A stretch of 64,000 bases of DNA from positions 1 through 64,000 of IMG/VR virus record IMGVR_UViG_3300037325_000137. One strand, 5' to 3'. Origin of the DNA: a virus. Positions within the stretch are counted from its first letter, which is position 1, and the number at the start of each line of letters is the position of its first letter. The notes under the pieces were generated by a model. It did not search any database and was not told the origin of the DNA. It was given only the letters and a program-made list of their open reading frames with translations. Below, one piece after another: positions 11,347-64,000 of the stretch. The position numbers were made by a program, and so were the translations under genes.

Positions 11347-11946
11347 CTACGCTTTAGTATATTGTACCACTATTCTGTAAGGTGGTACAGGTTCTAGGTT
11401 TGTAACTATACCATTCTCGTCTAAAATTATATCTAAATCTTTGTTTAAATCACCTCTTTCTAAACTGATGGTTGTAAATGTTTGAATTTCTAAGCTATTT
11501 ATTGTGAATGAAAATGCAGGTATAACTTGTGTAGTGTTGTCTACAAATTTAATTAGAGAAACCCCAGTATCAATTATATCTACAACATCACCATCGACAA
11601 GCCCGTTTAAAATAGATGATTGACCATCATTGTTAATAGCAAATGTGCCTGAACCATCTGCTCCACCGTTTATAGAGTATTGTAAAACAACCTGTAAACT
11701 CCTAAAAACTCTAGGAAACTTTAGAGTTGTATAGTTCAGTATTATATTATAATCTGTTACTTGTTTAGGAGAGGTATTAATCTTTGTTTTAGCTCTATCT
11801 AAGTTTGTAAAGAAAGGTGCTATTGATCTAGTTGAAAACGGAGCTGATACTGCTGTCATTTCTTTTTCTACTTGGTAAACTTGTTGACCATCCCATGTTA
11901 ATCCTGTTATAAGAGTTTCTACTCCTTCTAATATATCTAATGCCAT
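11347..11946 (-). CDS. Putative tail protein
   Basis: Position in the tail cluster; beta-rich. Confidence 0.5.
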   Translation of the reverse strand: MALDILEGVETLITGLTWDGQQVYQVEKEMTAVSAPFSTRSIAPFFTNLDRAKTKINTSPKQVTDYNIILNYTTLKFPRVFRSLQVVLQYSINGGADGSGTFAINNDGQSSILNGLVDGDVVDIIDTGVSLIKFVDNTTQVIPAFSFTINSLEIQTFTTISLERGDLNKDLDIILDENGIVTNLEPVPPYRIVVQYTKA

Positions 11947-43479: not shown

Positions 43480-43501
43480 TTCTTATTGCCTATATACAGC
43501 C

Positions 43502-43798
43502 GTTAGCACACATTAAAACTATCTAATATATATTTCGCTAATTTTAAGGCTTGCTCTTTATTTAAGTAAGTATGTGCATCTCCTTGAAAATCTCCCTCTA
43601 TCTCAATCTCAAAGTCATTATCCTTGTCTACTGGGTTTATCACAAAATTATCAAGTGATAAACGTGTGCTAACACTTGGTATAGTGCATTGCTCGGTTTC
43701 GGTTTTTTTACTATCTGTATTCATAATTCAAAGTTTTTGTGTAATTAATTAAGTTCGTGCTATAAGGTCGCAACGACACCATACCATATCCGTTATTA
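43502..43798 (+). mobile_element. Solitary integron-like cassette outside the array
   Basis: GTTAGCACACATT(43502)...AACGTGTGCTAAC(43673), then arms GGTATAGTGCATTGC / GCAACGACACCATACC and GTT at 43792. Confidence 0.75.
43503..43724 (-). CDS. Cassette-encoded hypothetical protein
   Basis: Starts in the attC-like loop; stop TAA lies within the GTTA core. Confidence 0.7.
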   Translation of the reverse strand: MNTDSKKTETEQCTIPSVSTRLSLDNFVINPVDKDNDFEIEIEGDFQGDAHTYLNKEQALKLAKYILDSFNVC

Positions 43799-56712: not shown

Positions 56713-56941
56713 AAAAATCGATTATTGAATTGTGAGCCTTTAATATTTTAATTAGATTCATATAAGTGCTATTATCTTGTGTTTCTTTTATAAATATTTC
56801 TAAGAACTCTTTGTGAGTAATAGGCTTGTAATTTATAAAGAAATCATATTTAAGACTAGGATTAGATGTGATTATATTTCCTATTTCTTGAATATTGTAG
56901 GATTTAAACCTGTGACCTAAATTATTTCTAATTTTATACAT
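56693..56941 (-). CDS. Hypothetical protein translationally coupled to the integrase
   Basis: ATG overlaps the integrase stop codon. Confidence 0.6.
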   Translation of the reverse strand: MYKIRNNLGHRFKSYNIQEIGNIITSNPSLKYDFFINYKPITHKEFLEIFIKETQDNSTYMNLIKILKAHNSIIDFYEKQDK

Positions 56942-57750
56942 TAAATAGGCATTTGAATTTTGCTTAAATGATTTTTTGAAACGTGGGTGTAAATTTCAGT
57001 TGTCTTAGAGCTTTGATGCCCCGCAATAGATTGGATTATCCTTAAATCAGTACCTCCCTCTAGTAAGTGAGTGAAGCAACTATGCCTAAGCTGATGCATA
57101 TAAGCATCTTCTTTAATATACTTTTTAATTATTTTATTACAAGATGTGGCTGAATACTGTAAAGAAGACTGACCGTTAAAAAGATATTCTTTTGGTCTAT
57201 GTTTTTTAAAGTAATCCCTAAGTGTTTTTAGTAGCCCATTAGACAAAGGAACAACTCTATCTTTCTTGCCTTTAGCTTGAATTATATGAATCAATCCTCT
57301 ATTTGAATCAATGTTTTCTATTTTCAGATTTATTATTTCTGAAACCCTTAATCCGCAACTATATGCTGCGGATAAAATAGCTTTATGTTTCATGTTTTTT
57401 ATAGATAATATTTTTTCTGTAAGAATTTTTTTATCTATTATTTGGGGTAGCTTTTTTTCTTTTCTAGGTCTTGAAAAATCTACTTTATCGTATTTTTTAT
57501 TCAGAACTTTTTTGTAAAGAAACTTGATTGAGCTTATTATTTGATTTTGTTGCGATATAGAGCTGAAATTATAATTTTCTAAATAAGATTTAAAATCATT
57601 ACTATCTAGCTTAGAAGGAGACTTTTTATTGACTCTTAAAAATTCTTCAACGTAATAACTATATATTTTTACAGTATTTTTACTGTAGTTAAAATAGTTC
57701 AATTTTGAAATGAAATTCTGCAGAAAAGTGTGTTTAGTTTTGCTTAACAT
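56941..57750 (-). CDS. Tyrosine recombinase, integron-integrase-like but lacking the IntI insertion
   Basis: SAM-like N-terminus (YSKNTVKIY); catalytic R (GLRVSE), K (KGKKDR), HQLRH, GH, Y (TTEIYTHV); 269 aa. Confidence 0.9.
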   Translation of the reverse strand: MLSKTKHTFLQNFISKLNYFNYSKNTVKIYSYYVEEFLRVNKKSPSKLDSNDFKSYLENYNFSSISQQNQIISSIKFLYKKVLNKKYDKVDFSRPRKEKKLPQIIDKKILTEKILSIKNMKHKAILSAAYSCGLRVSEIINLKIENIDSNRGLIHIIQAKGKKDRVVPLSNGLLKTLRDYFKKHRPKEYLFNGQSSLQYSATSCNKIIKKYIKEDAYMHQLRHSCFTHLLEGGTDLRIIQSIAGHQSSKTTEIYTHVSKNHLSKIQMPI

Positions 57751-57799
57751 ATTGATTTATATTGATTTGTTAGTTATGGTTGATATATAGTAGTTAGCA
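57751..57799 (+). other. attI-like site
   Basis: ATTGATTT direct repeats (57751, 57761) and GATATATAGTA-G|TT at 57793 where the first cassette begins; no hairpin. Confidence 0.6.
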
Positions 57800-58084
57800 A
57801 ACATTATTCAAATAATCACAGTACATTTTTGCCTGTTCTTCGCTATGTATAAAGAACACTACCTCTATACCTTTGCCATCGAGTACCGCTTTACCTTGTT
57901 TTCTGCCAACTCTAAAAGGTGGTGTATATTTATTAGCATCATAACGTTTGCTAACACCAGATAAAATTAATGCCTCGTCTACTGCATTTTTAATAAGTCC
58001 TATACATTCTTCTTTTGCTAATGAAGTTCCTACCCAACTTTTTAAATTTTGTGCATGTTTATCAATTATTTGCTCTTTAGTCAT
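57794..58084 (-). CDS. Cassette 1 hypothetical protein
   Basis: Starts in the attC1 loop; stop lies in the GTTA core. Confidence 0.7.
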   Translation of the reverse strand: MTKEQIIDKHAQNLKSWVGTSLAKEECIGLIKNAVDEALILSGVSKRYDANKYTPPFRVGRKQGKAVLDGKGIEVVFFIHSEEQAKMYCDYLNNVC

Positions 58085-58147
58085 TGTCTATTTATTTAAT
58101 TATTGTTATTATTTATCGGCACTAATCTTATCTGCGGTACGTTAGCT
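57949..58147 (+). repeat. attC-like site 1
   Basis: TGCTAAC-ACC-AGATAAAATTAATGCC ... GGCACTAATCTTATCT-GCGGTAC-GTTAGCT. Confidence 0.8.
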
Positions 58148-58155
58148 ACAAGTGC

Positions 58156-58875
58156 TTAATTTAGTTGATTAAACAAAGTTGGTGCTTCAATCTCTTTTTC
58201 TTTTTTTTTCCCCACCCTTTCACTCGCAATATCAAAATAATCCTGTTGCATTTCAATTCCAATAAATCTTCTATTTAGGTTTTTACAAGCAACTCCTGTT
58301 GTACCACTACCCATAAAAGGGTCTAATACTACTTCGTTTTCATTAGTTGAGTTGTTTATATAAAATTCCATTAATTCTATTGGTTTTTCTGTTGGGTGTA
58401 CTTTACTCCCAATTATATTATTAAAAGAATGTACTGTTTTGCTTCCGCCAATGTCATTTATGTATTTAGATTTTCCTTTTCTAAAAAATATAGTGTACTC
58501 GCAATTCTTCATATAAAATTGAGAAGGTGTGCAGTTGTTTTTTTGCCAAACTAAAAAGTTTTGTATTTTAAATCCTGCTTTTTCTATCTCGTTTGCCATT
58601 TTTAGTAAATTAGAAGAGTTTACCATCACATAGTTTTGAGTTCCATCTTTTAGTATTCTAAACATTTCTGGCAACCATTCACTAAATTTAGGAACACTCC
58701 TCATTAGTTCTCTATTTCCTTTCAATATACCTTTTGGTCTAATACTGTTTTTGCCATTACTATCACCTCCTGTTATTATTTTATAAGGAGGGTCAGTAAC
58801 TACACAATCAATACTTTCGCTTGGTAATGTTTTTAATATTTCAAGGGCATCACCCATTTTTAAATCTATATTCAT
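58156..58875 (-). CDS. Cassette 2: DNA N6-adenine/N4-cytosine methyltransferase (beta class)
   Basis: TDPPY, HPTEKP, VLDPFMGSGTT. Confidence 0.92.
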   Translation of the reverse strand: MNIDLKMGDALEILKTLPSESIDCVVTDPPYKIITGGDSNGKNSIRPKGILKGNRELMRSVPKFSEWLPEMFRILKDGTQNYVMVNSSNLLKMANEIEKAGFKIQNFLVWQKNNCTPSQFYMKNCEYTIFFRKGKSKYINDIGGSKTVHSFNNIIGSKVHPTEKPIELMEFYINNSTNENEVVLDPFMGSGTTGVACKNLNRRFIGIEMQQDYFDIASERVGKKKEKEIEAPTLFNQLN

Positions 58876-58975
58876 AATGTTTTAATTTTATCAAATTAAT
58901 TTGCCAACGCTCAAAAAAGAAAATAAAAAGGTTCAGTTCTATTAATTAAGTTTAGGTGTTTAAAGTCGCACCAGT

Positions 58976-59032
58976 AGGTAACACTGTATAAAAGCCATTG
59001 AAAATAACGGCTCTTATACCCATCCGTTAGCA
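58976..59032 (+). repeat. attC-like site 2 (57 bp)
   Basis: AGGTAAC-ACT-GTATAAAAGCC ... GGCTCTTATAC-CCATCC-GTTAGCA. Confidence 0.8.
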
Positions 59033-59036
59033 ACAA

Positions 59037-59279
59037 TTAATTGCCCTGTAAGTAATTGTCTGCAATCCATTCTTTACTTACAAACCTATTTCCTCCACCT
59101 TTTTCAAGGCTTGTTAAAAGGTCAATTAACAGTTCCCTTCGGTTGCTAACATCGTTTAACCGTAATTGCTCGGTTACGTACTTATCTATGAAGTCTGTTA
59201 ACCATTCTACCTTTTCATTTCCAGTCATATCGTTTCTTGATACAAGTTGGTTTAATTTTTCAATCTCTGTTATTTTCAT
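59037..59279 (-). CDS. Cassette 3 hypothetical protein
   Basis: Starts in the attC3 loop; arm read as QLRLNDVSNR. Confidence 0.7.
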   Translation of the reverse strand: MKITEIEKLNQLVSRNDMTGNEKVEWLTDFIDKYVTEQLRLNDVSNRRELLIDLLTSLEKGGGNRFVSKEWIADNYLQGN

Positions 59280-59343
59280 CTGTTCTTATTTATTAAGTTT
59301 TGTTATTAATTCACGCAACTACGGTTACACGTAGCCGTTGTAG
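59144..59343 (+). repeat. attC-like site 3
   Basis: TGCTAAC-AT-CGTTTAACCGTAATTGC ... GCAACTACGGTTACACG-TAGCC-GTT. Confidence 0.8.
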
Positions 59344-59348
59344 TGCAT

Positions 59349-59645
59349 TTACATTACGTTTCGCTCGATACTTATGTTTTTATCAGTAACAACTACTATA
59401 AAGCTTGTTCTTTGCACCGCCAAAGGGGCTTTTTTTTCAAGATGTTTAAGAACGTGGTTTGCACCATTATTTACTATATCACGTCTAGTTTTTAATTGAT
59501 GAAGTTTGTTTTGTACTTGCTCAATTTCGGCTTCCAATTCTTCTTTCTCTAAAGCTATATTCACTAATATATCAGCCCCTTTTATTTCCTCGCCTTGAAT
59601 AAGGTCAGTAATTCCAGAGAAACTTAGGTCGTCAATTTTTTTCAT
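59349..59645 (-). CDS. Cassette 4 coiled-coil hypothetical protein
   Basis: ORF between cognate inverted repeats; start taken at MKKIDD. Confidence 0.7.
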   Translation of the reverse strand: MKKIDDLSFSGITDLIQGEEIKGADILVNIALEKEELEAEIEQVQNKLHQLKTRRDIVNNGANHVLKHLEKKAPLAVQRTSFIVVVTDKNISIERNVM

Positions 59646-59659
59646 AGCAAAAAAACGCA

Positions 59660-59791
59660 CTACAACACTGTATAAAAATAATAGCCTGTTGTAGTGTCTT
59701 TTTAGTGGCTATTACTCACTTATTAATTAATTGTTTAACTTAAACTTTTCGCTTATTTATTCGGCTACTATTCTTATACTAAACGTTGTAA
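59660..59791 (+). repeat. attC-like site 4
   Basis: TACAAC-ACT-GTATAAAAATAATAGCC ... GGCTACTATTCTTATAC-TAAAC-GTT. Confidence 0.85.
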
Positions 59792-59795
59792 GTAA

Positions 59796-60029
59796 TTAAG
59801 GTTCGAGATACCTCAAAGGCACTTCTTTACTCCAAAAACCACCCTTATCAATGTTCTGTACTAACGCTCTTGGTTCGTCATAATATTCTTGTGTTTTACC
59901 ATCTTGAAATATTGGATAATACACCAACATCCATCTGTCTTTTTTACCATCCATTTTATAAACGCTTTCGTTACGCTTATGATTTTTCCAAATCGGGTGG
60001 TTTAAGGCTTTTTCTAAATCTATGTTCAT
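59796..60029 (-). CDS. Cassette 5 hypothetical protein
   Basis: ORF between GTTGTAAGTAATTAA and TTAACTACTTACAAC. Confidence 0.7.
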   Translation of the reverse strand: MNIDLEKALNHPIWKNHKRNESVYKMDGKKDRWMLVYYPIFQDGKTQEYYDEPRALVQNIDKGGFWSKEVPLRYLEP

Positions 60030-60049
60030 TTCTTATTTGCTTTAACTAC

Positions 60050-60252
60050 TTACAACACTATATATAATTAATATAAAAGGGGCGCAGTCCAACTATCCGT
60101 TATTCCTTTCGGGTCAAGCCTAAGCCCCCACGGAAGGAACGTTTTACAGGCTTTGGACACCTTCAATTTCACTATCTAAAACGCTGTTGGTAAACCCACT
60201 AATTTCTGCATTTTTAACCCCTTTTAAACTAATCATATATTTTACGTTATAA
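60050..60252 (+). repeat. attC-like site 5 with a structured GC-rich loop
   Basis: TACAAC-ACT-ATATATAATTAATATAAAAGGGG ... CCCCTTTTAAACTAATCATATAT-TTTAC-GTT. Confidence 0.75.
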
Positions 60253-60519
60253 ACAATACTCTTTTTGTGTATATGGTTCAGAGTAGAAGCATTTATCAGT
60301 ACTATCAAATTTAATATTTCTATACCAAGTTATTTCTGTATTTGTTGTTTTTCCTGTTCTACTACTGCAATCACAATCTTTATGACATTGGCAACTACCA
60401 TTATCAATAGAAGTGTATTTTTTAGTAAATATTCTATAAGAAACACCATCTATAATTGTGATTTGCAATGCTTCCATTTCTATATTCAATCTTTTAGGGT
60501 TTAACAATCTTTCTCGCAT
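60247..60519 (-). CDS. Cassette 6 Cys-rich hypothetical protein
   Basis: CQCHKDCDC; stop in the GTTA core; start taken at MRERLL. Confidence 0.65.
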   Translation of the reverse strand: MRERLLNPKRLNIEMEALQITIIDGVSYRIFTKKYTSIDNGSCQCHKDCDCSSRTGKTTNTEITWYRNIKFDSTDKCFYSEPYTQKEYCL

Positions 60520-60533
60520 AACTTCCGTACAGT

Positions 60534-60628
60534 TTATAACACAGGCTATAAATAAAAGCCCTGTCAAGGTTATTGTTGTGAATCGAACTTTGTGTTTAGG
60601 GCTTCAATTCATAGCCGAGCCGTTATCT
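60534..60628 (+). repeat. attC-like site 6
   Basis: TATAAC-ACA-GGCTATAAATAAAAGCCCT ... AGGGCTTCAATTCATAGCC-GAGCC-GTT. Confidence 0.8.
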
Positions 60629-60799
60629 TTAATAATCAAACTCTTCCTCATTTAATACATCAAAGTGAATATCCTCATTTAATACATCAAAGTGAATATC
60701 CTCTATTTTGTTTTTAATAAACAGTCTTTTAATTCGATAGATAACTAAAGATAACAATGTATAAAATGCATAGCTTAATTTCGTTCTTAAATTTTTCAT
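60629..60799 (-). CDS. Cassette 7 small protein (56 aa) with a 9-aa tandem duplication
   Basis: MKNLRTKLSYAFYTLLSLVIYRIKRLFIKNKIEDIHFDVLNEDIHFDVLNEEEFDY; 27-bp repeat x2 at 60645-60703. Confidence 0.55.
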   Translation of the reverse strand: MKNLRTKLSYAFYTLLSLVIYRIKRLFIKNKIEDIHFDVLNEDIHFDVLNEEEFDY

Positions 60800-60886
60800 C
60801 TGTTCTGTTTTTAAAGTTTATAATTTATAATTAATTCAAAGTCTGTGGTGTTTAGGTCGCTACGCACCTTATACTAAACGTTGTGT
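60749..60886 (+). repeat. attC-like site 7
   Basis: GATAAC-AAT-GTATAAAATGCATAGC ... GCTACGCACCTTATAC-TAAAC-GTT. Confidence 0.8.
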
Positions 60887-60894
60887 GTAATACT

Positions 60895-61137
60895 TTATTT
60901 AGGTTCGTTTACAGCATTACTATCTACTTTTTTCCAAGGACGTTCTATCATATTACAACCTGCTTGATACCAAGTTTGTATTTGTAATTTATTACATTTT
61001 GTACACTTTCTAAAATGAGCATATCTATTATCTTCTTTTCTACCACCGTCCCAATACTTATAAGGATGATATAAATTAAAAAAACAAAGTAATTTTTGCA
61101 ATGCTTTAGGTTTGTCTATTCTTAAAACTTTTTCCAT
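60895..61137 (-). CDS. Cassette 8 small Zn-binding protein (DUF1660-like)
   Basis: LLC....H......RKCTKC. Confidence 0.65.
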   Translation of the reverse strand: MEKVLRIDKPKALQKLLCFFNLYHPYKYWDGGRKEDNRYAHFRKCTKCNKLQIQTWYQAGCNMIERPWKKVDSNAVNEPK

Positions 61138-61171
61138 TTTAATAAAGTTTGTGGCTTAAATTCCGTATTAC

Positions 61172-61267
61172 ACACAACAATGTATATAGTTTATAAGCCA
61201 ATTAATATTTGTTTTTAATTTGTAAATTTCTGATATGGCTTACAAAACCATATACTCAACGTTAGGC
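61172..61267 (+). repeat. attC-like site 8
   Basis: CACAAC-AAT-GTATATAGTTTATAAGCCA ... TGGCTTACAAAACCATATAC-TCAAC-GTT. Confidence 0.85.
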
Positions 61268-61271
61268 ACAA

Positions 61272-61577
61272 TTAAGGTTTGCGTCCTAATAACTTACTTA
61301 GCTTCATCCCCAACCACTCAGGGCAAGGTATAGCTACTACCCATCTTAAATAAGGCAATATACCTACAAAACCAATCCCCCAATGCTCTGTTGCAACTAT
61401 TGAAACTTCAAAGCTAAATGCGTCTAAAGTCCAAAATGTAAATATTAGCCATCTAAAACTAAAACTACTTGTATTGTGTTCGTCTGCTTTCCTTATTTCT
61501 ATTAAGGGTATTAATGGAAATACATTTTTGTTGTACCATTTTTCTGTTCTCATTCTTCCTGATGCTGTTTGTGACAT
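61272..61577 (-). CDS. Cassette 9 hypothetical protein
   Basis: ORF between GTTAGGCAC and GTGCCTAAC. Confidence 0.7.
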   Translation of the reverse strand: MSQTASGRMRTEKWYNKNVFPLIPLIEIRKADEHNTSSFSFRWLIFTFWTLDAFSFEVSIVATEHWGIGFVGILPYLRWVVAIPCPEWLGMKLSKLLGRKP

Positions 61578-61587
61578 AATTAAAAGT

Positions 61588-61681
61588 GCCTAACAATAGC
61601 TAAAGTTAATAGCCTCAATAGGTCTTGTTATAATTTGATGGTTAGTATTAAAGGCTACTAACCTTAGCCTAGACGTTATGA
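61588..61681 (+). repeat. attC-like site 9
   Basis: GCCTAAC-AATA-GCTAAAGTTAATAGCCT ... AGGCTACTAACCTTAGC-CTAGAC-GTT. Confidence 0.85.
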
Positions 61682-61834
61682 TGCAATTAAAATTTTAAGC
61701 ATCTCGTTTAACTTCCCTACACATTGAGCATAGTATCGTTCATTATCTTCCTGTTTCATTATTTTAGCTACTTCATAAAGGTCTGTATAAATACCAATTT
61801 TCTTTATTACAATACTTTTTAGTTCATCCATCAT
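61676..61834 (-). CDS. Cassette 10 small helical protein
   Basis: MMDELKSIV...; stop in the GTTA core. Confidence 0.55.
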   Translation of the reverse strand: MMDELKSIVIKKIGIYTDLYEVAKIMKQEDNERYYAQCVGKLNEMLKILIAS

Positions 61835-61849
61835 TAAAATTTTAAAAGC

Positions 61850-61934
61850 ACATAACAATGTATAAAATTAATGCGCTATGATAATTAGTGTTAAATTTTT
61901 AAGTATGTGGTTAGCGCACTAATCTTATACTAAC
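61850..61934 (+). repeat. attC-like site 10 (downstream GTT core apparently deleted)
   Basis: CATAAC-AAT-GTATAAAATTAATGCGCTA ... TAGCGCACTAATCTTATAC-TAAC, with no GTT at the expected position. Confidence 0.75.
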
Positions 61935-61944
61935 TGCAATGTTG

Positions 61945-62193
61945 CTATTTAAAGTTTTGCCTAAACGGCTTGTTACATTTTGGACAAGAAGTGCCTAAAT
62001 ACAAGCCTTTGATTATCGGTTCGCAACACTGTTCGCTCTGCCTTACAACAACGGGTATAGAAAATAATTCAGAAGGCATCAGTCTTTCTATCACGTCTAT
62101 TGCACTCCATATTTCTCTTGATTCATAACTGTGATGTATTGAGTCAAAGTGTTCTGCTCTTTTTTCTAGTGTTTTAATAACGTCTGCTTTCAT
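61945..62193 (-). CDS. Cassette 11 protein with C-terminal Zn-ribbon
   Basis: Starts in the attC11 loop; arm read as LFSIPVVVRQ; CC...CPKC. Confidence 0.7.
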   Translation of the reverse strand: MKADVIKTLEKRAEHFDSIHHSYESREIWSAIDVIERLMPSELFSIPVVVRQSEQCCEPIIKGLYLGTSCPKCNKPFRQNFK

Positions 62194-62253
62194 CTTTTAA
62201 GTTTTTGCGTTTTAAATCCTCCTAAATTAAATTCCATACCCAAACCGTTAGCA
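62043..62253 (+). repeat. attC-like site 11
   Basis: TTACAAC-AAC-GGGTATAGAAAATAATT ... AATTAAATTCCATACCC-AAACC-GTT. Confidence 0.75.
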
Positions 62254-62373
62254 TTAATACTCAGTACCTAAGTATTCTACTAAATAAGGGTAGTCCCAAC
62301 TTTTACTGCTACTGTAATACATTTTCCAGTAACCTCTATTATTCTTTATTATTTCAGTCCATTTACTTGTCAT
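62254..62373 (-). CDS. Cassette 12 micro-protein (39 aa)
   Basis: MTSKWTEIIKNNRGYWKMYYSSSKSWDYPYLVEYLGTEY between GTTAGCATTAATAC and GTACTAATGCTAAC. Confidence 0.55.
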   Translation of the reverse strand: MTSKWTEIIKNNRGYWKMYYSSSKSWDYPYLVEYLGTEY

Positions 62374-62400
62374 AGTTTCTATTTTTTAAGTCCGTACTAA

Positions 62401-62453
62401 TGCTAACAATATGTAAAAAACATTAAAACGATGTGTTATACTAGACGTTAGCA
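62401..62453 (+). repeat. attC-like site 12 (minimal, 53 bp)
   Basis: TGCTAAC-AATATGTAAAAAACAT...ATGTGTTATAC-TAGAC-GTT. Confidence 0.65.
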
Positions 62454-62732
62454 AACATTTATGTTGTTGCTATCTATAAAGCTTTTAGGATTTCCGCAAC
62501 CTATTAAAAACTCTGCTCCGTTACCTAATTTAAAGTAACATCTATCCCAATCATTGCTTCTATCGAAAGTAAAATTTTCACCTTTTTTTATGGTATAATA
62601 ACACCCTTTCCAACTCAAATTCTCCCTTCTATTGTTAGGTATATTACCCACATCAGTGGCTTCTATGGGTGTGCTACCATACCTACCTTTATCAATAAAA
62701 ACTCTAATATCTTCTGTTGCTTGTAAATTCAT
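62448..62732 (-). CDS. Cassette 13 hypothetical protein
   Basis: Start taken at MNLQAT; stop in the GTTA core. Confidence 0.7.
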   Translation of the reverse strand: MNLQATEDIRVFIDKGRYGSTPIEATDVGNIPNNRRENLSWKGCYYTIKKGENFTFDRSNDWDRCYFKLGNGAEFLIGCGNPKSFIDSNNINVC

Positions 62733-62744
62733 AATTAAACGATT

Positions 62745-62838
62745 TGCTAACACAACCTATACACCATAAAGCAATATAGTATTGTGCTAATATTAAACAT
62801 TGTGCTACGCTTTACGGTGCATAGCTTTACCGTTGGCG
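62745..62838 (+). repeat. attC-like site 13
   Basis: TGCTAAC-ACAAC-CTATACACCATAAAGC ... GCTTTACGGTGCATAG-CTTTACC-GTT. Confidence 0.8.
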
Positions 62839-62844
62839 GTAATA

Positions 62845-63195
62845 CTACATTAGTACCTTATCCATCATTTCATTTATGTTCTCCGCAATTTTTTCATCAT
62901 AACCTCTATTGTAAAATTCATCGCCAGTAGTCAAATGATAAGTACCTATGTTATCCAAATACTGTTTCATTTTTTCATAAGGTTCAGTATTTTCATACCC
63001 TATCAAATTAAGATAAGACCAATAACATTTAATAGAAAATTGCTCTGTGTTTGTTCCTCTATCTGTTCTTTTTTCGTTTTGTCTTTGTATCCATAAGGCT
63101 TGTTCTTTCTTGTAGTCTGTGTACTTTAAAGCCGTACTACTGCCAACAAAAAATATAGCAAATGCTTTTCGTAATCTTTGGGTAAATTGTTTCAT
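62845..63195 (-). CDS. Cassette 14 hypothetical protein
   Basis: Starts in the attC14 loop; arm read as AFAIFFVGSS. Confidence 0.7.
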   Translation of the reverse strand: MKQFTQRLRKAFAIFFVGSSTALKYTDYKKEQALWIQRQNEKRTDRGTNTEQFSIKCYWSYLNLIGYENTEPYEKMKQYLDNIGTYHLTTGDEFYNRGYDEKIAENINEMMDKVLM

Positions 63196-63261
63196 ACTTC
63201 TAATTTTTAGTTCATTTAAGTTAGAGTGTTGTTGGCACTTGCCATCTTCAAACCGTTAGCC
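63141..63261 (+). repeat. attC-like site 14
   Basis: TGCCAAC-AAAAAATATAGCAAATGC ... GCACTTGCCATCTT-CAAACC-GTT. Confidence 0.75.
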
Positions 63262-63522
63262 ACCATTTGAAAAACCGCACTCATCCAAGAAGCTTTGTCC
63301 AACAGGAGAACCTAACCATTGAATTAAGTTTACGCAAATATCTTCTTCTTTTTCGGACAACCACTCTTTAGGTTGCGTTTGTCTATCATTAGACCACCCA
63401 TTCACAATAGCACTTAGGCTTTTTCTGGCAGAACCATCATGATTGAACATTTTAATAAATTTATCGTGAAATTCTTTTTCTTTAGGATTGTCATTAAATC
63501 TGTATTCTTTATTGCCTTTCAT
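63256..63522 (-). CDS. Cassette 15 hypothetical phage protein
   Basis: NPKEKEF...IQWLGSPVGQSFL; stop in the GTTA core. Confidence 0.75.
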   Translation of the reverse strand: MKGNKEYRFNDNPKEKEFHDKFIKMFNHDGSARKSLSAIVNGWSNDRQTQPKEWLSEKEEDICVNLIQWLGSPVGQSFLDECGFSNGG

Positions 63523-63533
63523 AGTAAAACGGT

Positions 63534-63656
63534 GGCTAACAATGTATATAGCAAATAGCCTTATTAGCCATTTTAGAAACTACTTGCTTGTTTATAATTT
63601 ATTTACTTTTTACTTAATTCTGTGATAGGCTACTTGCCATATACTAAACATTGTAG
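63534..63656 (+). repeat. attC-like site 15 (core ATT instead of GTT)
   Basis: GGCTAAC-AAT-GTATATAGCAAATAGCCT ... AGGCTACTTGCCATATAC-TAAAC-ATT. Confidence 0.8.
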
Positions 63657-63750
63657 TGCATTAAAACGTTCGATTCGCCACAACAACACGCTATATAAAT
63701 AATGCTTGGTTTCGTGCTGTAATCAAAGTTTAGCGCTTTTAATGCCATAA

Positions 63751-63981
63751 TTAAATATTTTTAAAAACCCATTCACCATTTAGTTTCCAAGTTTCTTTAT
63801 CATAGTAAACTTCTACTACTATATTTTGCATTTTATTATGGCAACGTAAATTTCCACAAGAGAAGTCTACTGCTTCAATACCTAATTCATCATTTACATC
63901 AATAAAATCTTGGTTTTTACTCGTTGCTATCAACCTTACTGGGTATTCTGCTTTCTTTTTTAATACTTCTTTTAAGTTCAT
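63751..63981 (-). CDS. Hypothetical protein (probably a further cassette)
   Basis: ORF near the window end; flanking site incomplete. Confidence 0.6.
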   Translation of the reverse strand: MNLKEVLKKKAEYPVRLIATSKNQDFIDVNDELGIEAVDFSCGNLRCHNKMQNIVVEVYYDKETWKLNGEWVFKNI

Positions 63982-64000
63982 TTTTAAAAATATTTAATTA

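Follow-up and report, generated by a model that had tools for sequence, protein, structure and literature searches.

Which strand of a hairpin recombination site is exchanged, and what marks it? The question is raised by the virus record IMGVR_UViG_3300037325_000137 (IMG/VR), a 78,375-bp sequence with direct terminal repeats that is rated complete by CheckV, and of which the first 64 kb form the stretch analysed here (hereafter the window). From about 57.79 to 64.14 kb the record contains 16 attC-like hairpin sites with AAC...GTT cores, lying between small minus-strand open reading frames (ORFs), and a 269-aa tyrosine recombinase (P0001) is encoded on the minus strand to the left of this array. 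Integron recombination is the textbook case of a recombinase that reads the shape of DNA over its sequence, and its strand choice is credited to bulged bases gripped by a protein segment found only in IntI. A first-pass annotation of the window, made from the letters of the DNA, had noticed C opposite A at two places in otherwise perfect hairpin arms, i.e. G-T pairs on the minus strand, and had proposed that such wobbles may replace the bulged bases. The observation is confirmed and generalised below, and it is plausible, as judged from the site and protein sequences, that a compact Xer-type recombinase uses a wobble-marked strand in place of the classical bulges.

The mismatches of the phage sites have a common polarity and fixed places. 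Pairs are written below as left arm.right arm on the top (plus) strand unless otherwise stated. With a scan that scored A.C and G.T mismatches alike, every transition mismatch in the recovered array sites has its A in the left arm and its C in the right arm, the places concerned being stem positions 7 and 12 (+10 and +15 when counted in nt from the AAC core). Both positions are A.C in 11 of the 16 sites. Five of these, sites 1, 4, 9, 10 and 15, are exactly as the first-pass annotation had described them, with 16-19 bp of perfect pairing except for A(left).C(right) at positions 7 and 12 (site 9 has an extra A.C at position 1 if its spacer is counted as 3 nt), and sites 2, 5, 6, 7, 13 and 14 have both A.C pairs plus other mismatches. 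The spacer next to the core, previously given as typically 3 versus 5 nt, is indeed asymmetric (left side 3 nt, right side 5-7 nt). Hairpins that arise by chance in other parts of the genome mix A.C and G.T and have no positional pattern.

The same signature recurs in related loci. IMG/VR holds 209 relatives of the recombinase at 55-67% identity; weaker relatives (at most 52% identity) occur in bacterial genomes, mostly of Bacteroidota, and metagenomes contain thousands of related 263-270-aa proteins, mostly labelled just XerD or integrase. Among the IMG/VR loci with at least 3 kb of sequence on the side concerned, arrays of at least two sites were found upstream of the recombinase in 41 of 48 and downstream in 2 of 74. 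From about 60 related loci we assembled a validated set of 178 sites, whose neighbours had to show complementarity of the cassette ends, a criterion independent of the stem. In this set +15 is A.C in 97% of the sites, and the second mismatch is A.C at +10 in 37%, A.C at +12 in 17% or C.A at +13 in 10%; the remaining stem positions are Watson-Crick in 92-99%. On the top strand, A.C-type mismatches outnumber G.T-type mismatches by 305 to 12 (25:1). The commonest pattern is that of the phage, +10 with +15 (51 sites), followed by +15 alone (40 sites). Of the two wobble positions that had been described as conserved, +15 thus held in the larger set, while +10 is one of several alternatives. Spacer lengths in the relatives are 2-3 nt for the left side and 5-6 nt for the right, mostly in the combinations 2/5 (95 sites), 2/6 (72), 3/5 (22) and 3/6 (22).

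Some sites of these loci depart from the common form. A few are perfect palindromes whose arms are both A-type or both G-type (L030 rc 19368, L041 rc 16994 and L079 rc 12159), which gives the impression that one arm is a copy of its partner. A recurrent class of short sites with an 11-12-bp stem, ATAAC-aa-ATGATAAACAAC-ATTAAAACG-ATTGTTTATCAT-N5-GTT, is present in many IMG/VR loci (for example L034 rc ~200-243 and L041 rc ~11480-11526) and escapes the 16-bp scan. The apparent last site of an array is often not the last, as the strict scan passes over short and variant sites. An all-against-all BLAST comparison of 217 cassettes from the relative loci returned just four weak shared pieces.

Pairing of the arms is maintained by compensatory change, whereas the mismatch is not repaired. 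Over 94 aligned sites the covariation score is 0.671, compared with 0.145 for shuffled alignments (none of 500 reached the observed value) and 0.08-0.13 for slid controls. Compensatory changes affect 17 of the 19 stem pairs, AAC and GTT are invariant, and the +15 pair is A.C in 94 of 94 sites. Since the stem pairs co-vary while +15 stays A.C, the mismatch is held by selection and not by shared descent. The first-pass annotation had stated that the wobbles persist although the arms co-vary, and had suggested aligning and folding both strands; the statement is borne out by this alignment, and the folding, described below, found the minus-strand hairpin to be the more stable.

A third mismatch is found where cassette ends meet. 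The right core of one site pairs with the left core of the next over 15 bp (126 cassettes), at 90-100% for positions 1-9 and 66-85% for positions 10 and 12-15. Position 11 of this R stem is C.A in 77% of the cassettes and Watson-Crick in 6%, so that the C/A mismatch reported at position 11 of the cognate terminal repeats of the phage (for example AACGGTGGCTAAC versus GTTAGCCACCAT) is a real feature. The two cores within one site pair over positions 1-4 only. The cassette ends carry the footprint of circular intermediates, and R-stem position 11 adds a third fixed wobble, formed only in a circular or folded cassette.

Complementarity of the cassette ends fits a crossover at either core, and a separate test was therefore made of the crossover side. 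A TATATA-N3-4-GTT element without a hairpin is located some 85 nt upstream of the start of the recombinase in at least 20 related loci, of which three are bacterial, and its distal part pairs at 11 of 12 positions with the left core of the first hairpin; in the phage this attI-like element reads TGATATATAGTA-GTTAGCAAAC at ~57790. The solitary cassette that lies 14 kb away from the array, at 43491-43794, has its hairpin on the right and, on the left, a hairpin-less TATATAC-agcc-GTT, the secondary site at which it is inserted; its right core has no partner downstream. Finally, contigs of four other salt-lake runs contain near-identical blocks whose beginning falls 0-4 nt away from the G in the GTT of a right core (at 59337, 59025, 60876, 62445 and 60244), the sequence to their left within each contig being unlike, and the block 60244-60616 terminates at the final base of the right arm. 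All three observations (attI junctions, solitary cassette and contig breakpoints) put the crossover at the right core. The strand that integron and Xer enzymes cut reads 5'-RYYYAA|C-3' (PMC7439510), and the right core reads so only on the minus strand; it would therefore be the minus strand, on which the wobble hairpin forms, that is exchanged. We did not retain the joints in contigs from the other samples as excision events; most of them, in contigs from mixed relatives, connect similar arms across unlike loops. Stretches of the array that no contig covers carry no weight as evidence.

Folding with DNA parameters points to the same strand. Of 286 sites, 257 have the more stable hairpin on the bottom (minus) strand, the average difference being 2.8 kcal/mol; among the phage's own sites the count is 14 of 15. 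Standard pairs fill 93.7% of cells on the bottom strand versus 86.4% on the top strand. When five phage sites were folded, all five minus strands formed the full hairpin (-7.3 to -12.1 kcal/mol), compared with -5.0 to -10.5 kcal/mol for the plus strands, two of which do not form this hairpin. The bias does not follow transcription. In phage-type arrays the ORF lies on the wobble (bottom) strand in 166 of 185 cassettes, whereas 19 of 21 cassettes in the bacterial arrays L114, L120, L124 (a chromosome of Desulfitobacterium, Firmicutes) and L134 have it on the other strand; in 25 metagenome loci of bacterial type, ORFs off the wobble strand prevail by 25 to 2. Yet bacterial and viral arrays have the same mismatch polarity when it is read against the cores and the recombinase, and the polarity therefore belongs to the recombination site and not to the transcript. 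In the bacterial-type relatives (L114, L120, L124, L134 and L163-L242) the recombinase is upstream of the cassettes and co-directional with them, and the recombinase ORFs of L114 and L124 are about 380 aa long, with an N-terminal extension. The first-pass annotation had taken the folded single minus strand for the substrate. Its choice of the minus strand as the folding and exchanged strand is supported by four independent lines, the 25:1 polarity, the stability, the independence from the coding strand and the right-core crossover; that this strand is single when recombined we infer.

The enzyme beside the array is of the Xer/IntI type and lacks the hallmark of IntI. P0001 has the catalytic fold of these enzymes (PF00589 and PF13495, with E-values of 1e-38 to the XerA-like 4a8e and 2e-30 to IntI4), and the motifs HQLRH, GH and EIYTH can be read in its translation. 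It scores 180 bits with NCBIfam XerA_Arch, under the cut-off, and far under the cut-offs of all Xer equivalog models. The integron integrase profile TIGR02249 covers it only at profile positions 1-181 and 253-313, with 157.7 bits for the whole protein (hmmscan) and, when the genome was searched in six frames, 106.8 bits for one stretch and 57.2 bits for the other, all beneath the cut-off of 265 bits. About 24 residues of P0001 stand for about 70 profile positions, and in the comparison with IntI4 (PDB entry 2a3v) residues 180-212 of P0001 lie opposite residues 180-260. The additional domain specific to IntI, with its I2 helix, is thus missing from P0001, as it is from the array-adjacent relatives L001, L114 and L124.

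How far, then, does the system resemble a classical integron? The likeness is considerable. The sites have inverse cores, RYYYAAC and GTTRRRY, with the crossover side at G|TT, and they form an imperfect palindrome made of R box, unpaired central spacer, L box and variable loop, the L''/L' arms being free in sequence while their pairing is kept. Cassette ends pair only when circular, and an attI lies beside the recombinase gene. Classical attC sites also show a bottom-strand bias in G:T mispairs and folding energy (PMC5027507), and their marks lie about 9-16 nt from the R box (PMC7439510). On the other hand, classical extrahelical bases sit in the arm opposite AAC in the bottom strand (PMC5027507), as a G and a T that are separated by 6 bp and lie 9 and 16 nt away from the R box (PMC7439510), and together with the I2 helix they give strand choice (PMC4792948). 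Here, the first 16 bp are free of indels in 286 sites, and one bulge is present in a further 42 (~13%). The bulge-free share of ~87% of detected sites is an upper estimate, because the scan permits at most one transversion mismatch and one bulge and sites with several bulges escape it. When present, the bulge is on the other arm: the right arm has 38 of the 42, of which 32 fall at +12 to +14, as an extra T in the AAC-bearing arm of the bottom strand. The two or three extrahelical G or T bases opposite AAC on the bottom strand that characterise classical sites are not found. Instead there are position-fixed T.G wobbles (+15 in 97%, R-stem position 11 in 77%), and the two marks are 4 bp apart here versus 6 bp in classical attC. 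The genes of the phage arrays are antisense to the usual cassette orientation, in which a promoter at attI drives genes on the top strand, and co-directional with the recombinase, whereas the bacterial-type relatives keep the classical orientation. Fixed wobble positions, a 25:1 bias, rare and shifted bulges and the missing IntI segment therefore set these sites and their enzyme apart from classical attC and IntI.

Strand-biased wobbles are not new in themselves, as Nivina 2016 reported such an excess in 263 classical attC sites, with a bottom-strand count of 1.24 G:T mispairs versus 0.39 and an advantage of 2.12 kcal/mol (PMC5027507). The word 'wobble' was absent from the attC papers covered by a limited text search, and a text search of the literature, likewise limited, returned no account of an insertion-less enzyme with attC arrays; position-fixed wobbles served by such an enzyme appear to be undescribed so far.

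Three other systems come close. The hairpin of the CTX-phi attP(+), integrated by XerCD at dif1, is a precedent for folded single-stranded DNA (ssDNA) handled by Xer enzymes without an I2 segment. It shares with the present sites an unpaired central region in the hairpin, one-strand exchange and resolution by replication, but it is one phage attachment site for lysogeny, served by the host XerC/XerD, with no array of cassette sites; we know of no conserved wobble code in it. Its integration as a hairpin is discussed in PMC4792948. Qi et al. 2023 described phage-borne integrons and CALINs, in which the attC sites were of the classical kind, detected with IntegronFinder, and IntI1 was the recombinase (PMC9892861). 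AttC-type sites and cassettes on phage genomes are common to their case and ours, but that paper mentions neither Flavobacteriia-type phages nor an insertion-less recombinase nor a wobble code. The likeness to dif and pdif modules lies in a small Xer-like recombinase and in gene modules bounded by its sites. Xer/dif and pdif sites are 28-bp duplexes of 11-6-11 layout with no co-varying hairpin arms, whereas the present recombinase gene lies beside arrays of 40-300-nt hairpins and not beside a single duplex site.

The explanation that we prefer, and to which we give slightly better than an even chance, is that these are the attC-like sites of an integron-like cassette system, in which the adjacent compact Xer-type recombinase would act on a minus-strand ssDNA hairpin carrying wobble marks. 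This substrate would consist of an R stem, an unpaired spacer, a co-varying L stem and a variable loop. In the R stem 5'-RYYYAA|C would be paired with GTTRRRY, and the spacer would have 5-6 nt on its 5' side and 2-3 nt on its 3' side. The transitions at fixed places (+15; usually +10, +12 or +13; R-stem position 11) would be T.G on the bottom strand and non-pairing A.C on the top strand, so that only the bottom-strand hairpin could form a continuous helix, and the wobbles would probably also be a positional, asymmetric mark for the recombinase. In classical integrons this role falls to extrahelical bases, which are read by the IntI-specific I2 segment; the present enzyme is without that segment. 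To insert or excise a cassette, the recombinase would cleave at AA|C and make the exchange with the attI-like TATATA-N3-G|TT beside its gene; replication would then resolve the product.

More tentatively, and with less confidence than in this general scheme, the fixed T.G wobbles may be the specific marks by which a minimal I2-less Xer-type recombinase picks the ssDNA strand and its orientation, perhaps blocking second-strand exchange. Their place would then be some 10-13 bp out along each binding arm, and the T would belong to the strand running 5' to 3' towards the centre. An exact dyad symmetry of the R-arm and L-arm wobbles was considered and rejected; the strand carrying T is equivalent in the two arms, but the distances differ (10 nt versus 12-13 nt) and the symmetry is thus only approximate. 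That wobbles stand in for bulged bases, as the first-pass annotation had it, is plausible in so far as the marks at +10 and +15 resemble the classical positions at 9 and 16 nt and the IntI segment is missing. Several observations weigh against it. Bulges are present in ~13% of the detected sites, on the arm opposite to that of the classical rule; about one third of the sites carry a single mismatch; and a top-strand T.G of opposite polarity occurs at +6 in 4% of viral and 44% of bacterial-type sites. Bulged classical attC sites are G:T-rich on the bottom strand as well, so that wobbles alone are no substitute for bulges, and the strand bias of 2.8 kcal/mol resembles the 2.12 kcal/mol of classical sites, where bulges do most of the selecting. 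The fold z-scores of the five phage sites are modest (-1.2 to -3.0). At +15 both bases, A and C, are fixed, so that the mark might consist in a sequence-specific contact and not in the wobble geometry. Lastly, sequence alone cannot separate ssDNA folding from a cruciform or from double-strand half-site recognition.

These points give the rival explanations their weight. The wobbles might be a matter of thermodynamics only, G.T pairs stabilising the bottom-strand hairpin without the protein reading any particular one of them. The comparable bias and energy advantage of classical attC speak for this, but stability needs no fixed place, and +15 (97%) and R-stem position 11 (77%) are fixed while their neighbours co-vary freely; we regard it as rather unlikely. 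It is less likely still that the recombinase works on double-stranded half-sites, like Xer at dif, with the A/G differences distinguishing a left (accessory) from a right (crossover) half-site. An Xer-like enzyme without the IntI insertion would suit such sites, as would the fixed base identities at +15 and an attI-like site that is a plain duplex L-spacer-R resembling the right half of the hairpin sites. The strong compensatory covariation of the arms would, however, have no role in it, the conserved differences are all transitions, as wobble pairing requires, and the 15-bp cassette-end stem closes only when circular or folded.

The remaining two alternatives turn on the strand. If the top (plus) strand were the substrate, the unpaired A.C positions would be bulge-like marks comparable to extrahelical bases, and the bulges in 13% of the sites, lying opposite AAC in the top-strand hairpin, would match the classical rule for the recombined strand. 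But this predicts cutting and cassette boundaries at the left core, a crossover rejected by the attI junctions, the solitary cassette and the contig breakpoints, and the top strand folds less well; we consider it very improbable. The hairpins might also be RNA structures of the phage transcript (stabilisers, processing sites or terminators) with the wobbles as G.U pairs, since the wobble strand is the coding strand in the phage and some sites have alternative terminator-like stems (for example 59651-59703). The first-pass annotation had itself named hairpins acting only as mRNA structures as a result that would undo its proposal. With polarity unchanged in bacterial arrays whose genes are on the other strand, wobble places fixed relative to the AAC/GTT crossover cores and cassette ends that bear the footprint of circular intermediates, this explanation is largely refuted and has next to no probability left.

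The interest of the insertion-less family is that it keeps the same cassette logic with rare bulges, their place being occupied by a wobble pair that is near-invariant. Should this wobble be the mark, it would show how little structure-specific recombination needs, give a testable picture of how IntI could have evolved from Xer, of whose transition state the system could be a relative, and provide a compact pair of enzyme and site for engineering. It would also be a second, simpler natural route to recombination at hairpin sites, widespread in Bacteroidota phages and some bacteria. Phages, moreover, have cassette stores of their own that are invisible to tools requiring the IntI domain.

Table 1. 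Recombinase gene, attI-like junction, hairpin sites and solitary cassette; A.C pairs are given as left/right positions, and the bar marks the presumed crossover.
Feature	Coordinates	Strand	Basis or remark
Tyrosine recombinase P0001, 269 aa, Xer/XerA/IntI type	56941..57750	-	Profile and PDB comparisons
attI-like junction without hairpin, TGATATATAGTA-G|TTAGCAAAC	57776..57802	+	Distal part pairs with site 1 left core
Site 1, A.C 57965/58127 and 57970/58122, loop 137 nt	57953..58143	-	Scan
Site 2, A.C 58992/59013 and 58997/59008, short loop	58980..59028	-	
Site 3, A.C at position 12 only (59165/59319), T.C at position 3	59148..59339	-	
Site 4, A.C 59676/59773 and 59681/59768 (example of the first-pass annotation)	59664..59787	-	
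Site 5, A.C 60066/60234 and 60071/60229	60054..60248	-	
Site 6, A.C 60550/60610 and 60555/60605	60538..60624	-	
Site 7, A.C at stem positions 7, 8 and 12	60753..60882	-	
Site 8, A.C at position 7; position 12 beside a 1-nt right-arm bulge	61176..61263	-	Sequence read directly
Site 9, A.C 61604/61663 and 61609/61658	61592..61677	-	
Site 10, A.C 61866/61924 and 61871/61919; right core atypical, longer	61854..61943	-	
Site 11, A.C at position 7 only (62059/62235)	62047..62249	-	
Site 12, short, degenerate	62405..62449	-	Sequence read directly
Site 13, A.C 62761/62820 and 62766/62815	62749..62834	-	
Site 14, A.C at stem positions 1, 7 and 12	63145..63257	-	
Site 15, A.C 63550/63638 and 63555/63633; right core ATT	63538..63652	-	
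Site 16, degenerate, array end; beyond the window to GTT at genome 64141	63684..64000	-	
Solitary cassette: TATATAC-agcc-G|TTAGCACAC, minus-strand ORF, GTGTGCTAAC-act, hairpin (A.C pair and right-arm bulge), tatcc-G|TT	43491..43794	-	

A single Pfam family was found among the ten cassette ORFs scanned, an N6/N4 DNA methyltransferase in the second cassette (58156-58875; PF01555, E = 2e-41). The Rfam scan of the window gave zero family matches. In the INPHARED phage collection the sole match was of 74 nt, to Maribacter phage Panino, and at the protein level P0001 shows at most 39% identity to Cellulophaga and Polaribacter phage integrases. Several cassette ORFs begin within a hairpin loop and run through the left arm and core (57794-58084, 59037-59279 and 62845-63195), and the GTTA core often provides the stop codon of a minus-strand ORF, for example at 57794 and 60247. 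At site 4, the segment 59651-59703 can form an alternative stem, AAAAACGCACTACAACA / TGTTGTAGTGTCTTTTT, followed on the minus strand by a T-run, which is terminator-like and repeats the left-core sequence.

Beyond the window, a solitary site of the same type at genome 74698-74890 is inverted, with its wobbles on the plus strand, among plus-strand genes. Its arms are nearly those of site 1, a small ORF lies in its loop and its own two cores are mutually complementary over about 10 nt. Finally, the other salt-lake samples (contigs of runs X2-X5, compared over 57700-64000 of the window) contain the same hairpin arms with different loops and neighbours, and the site 9 block, 61586-61679, is followed there by at least three different sequences downstream after GTTAT.

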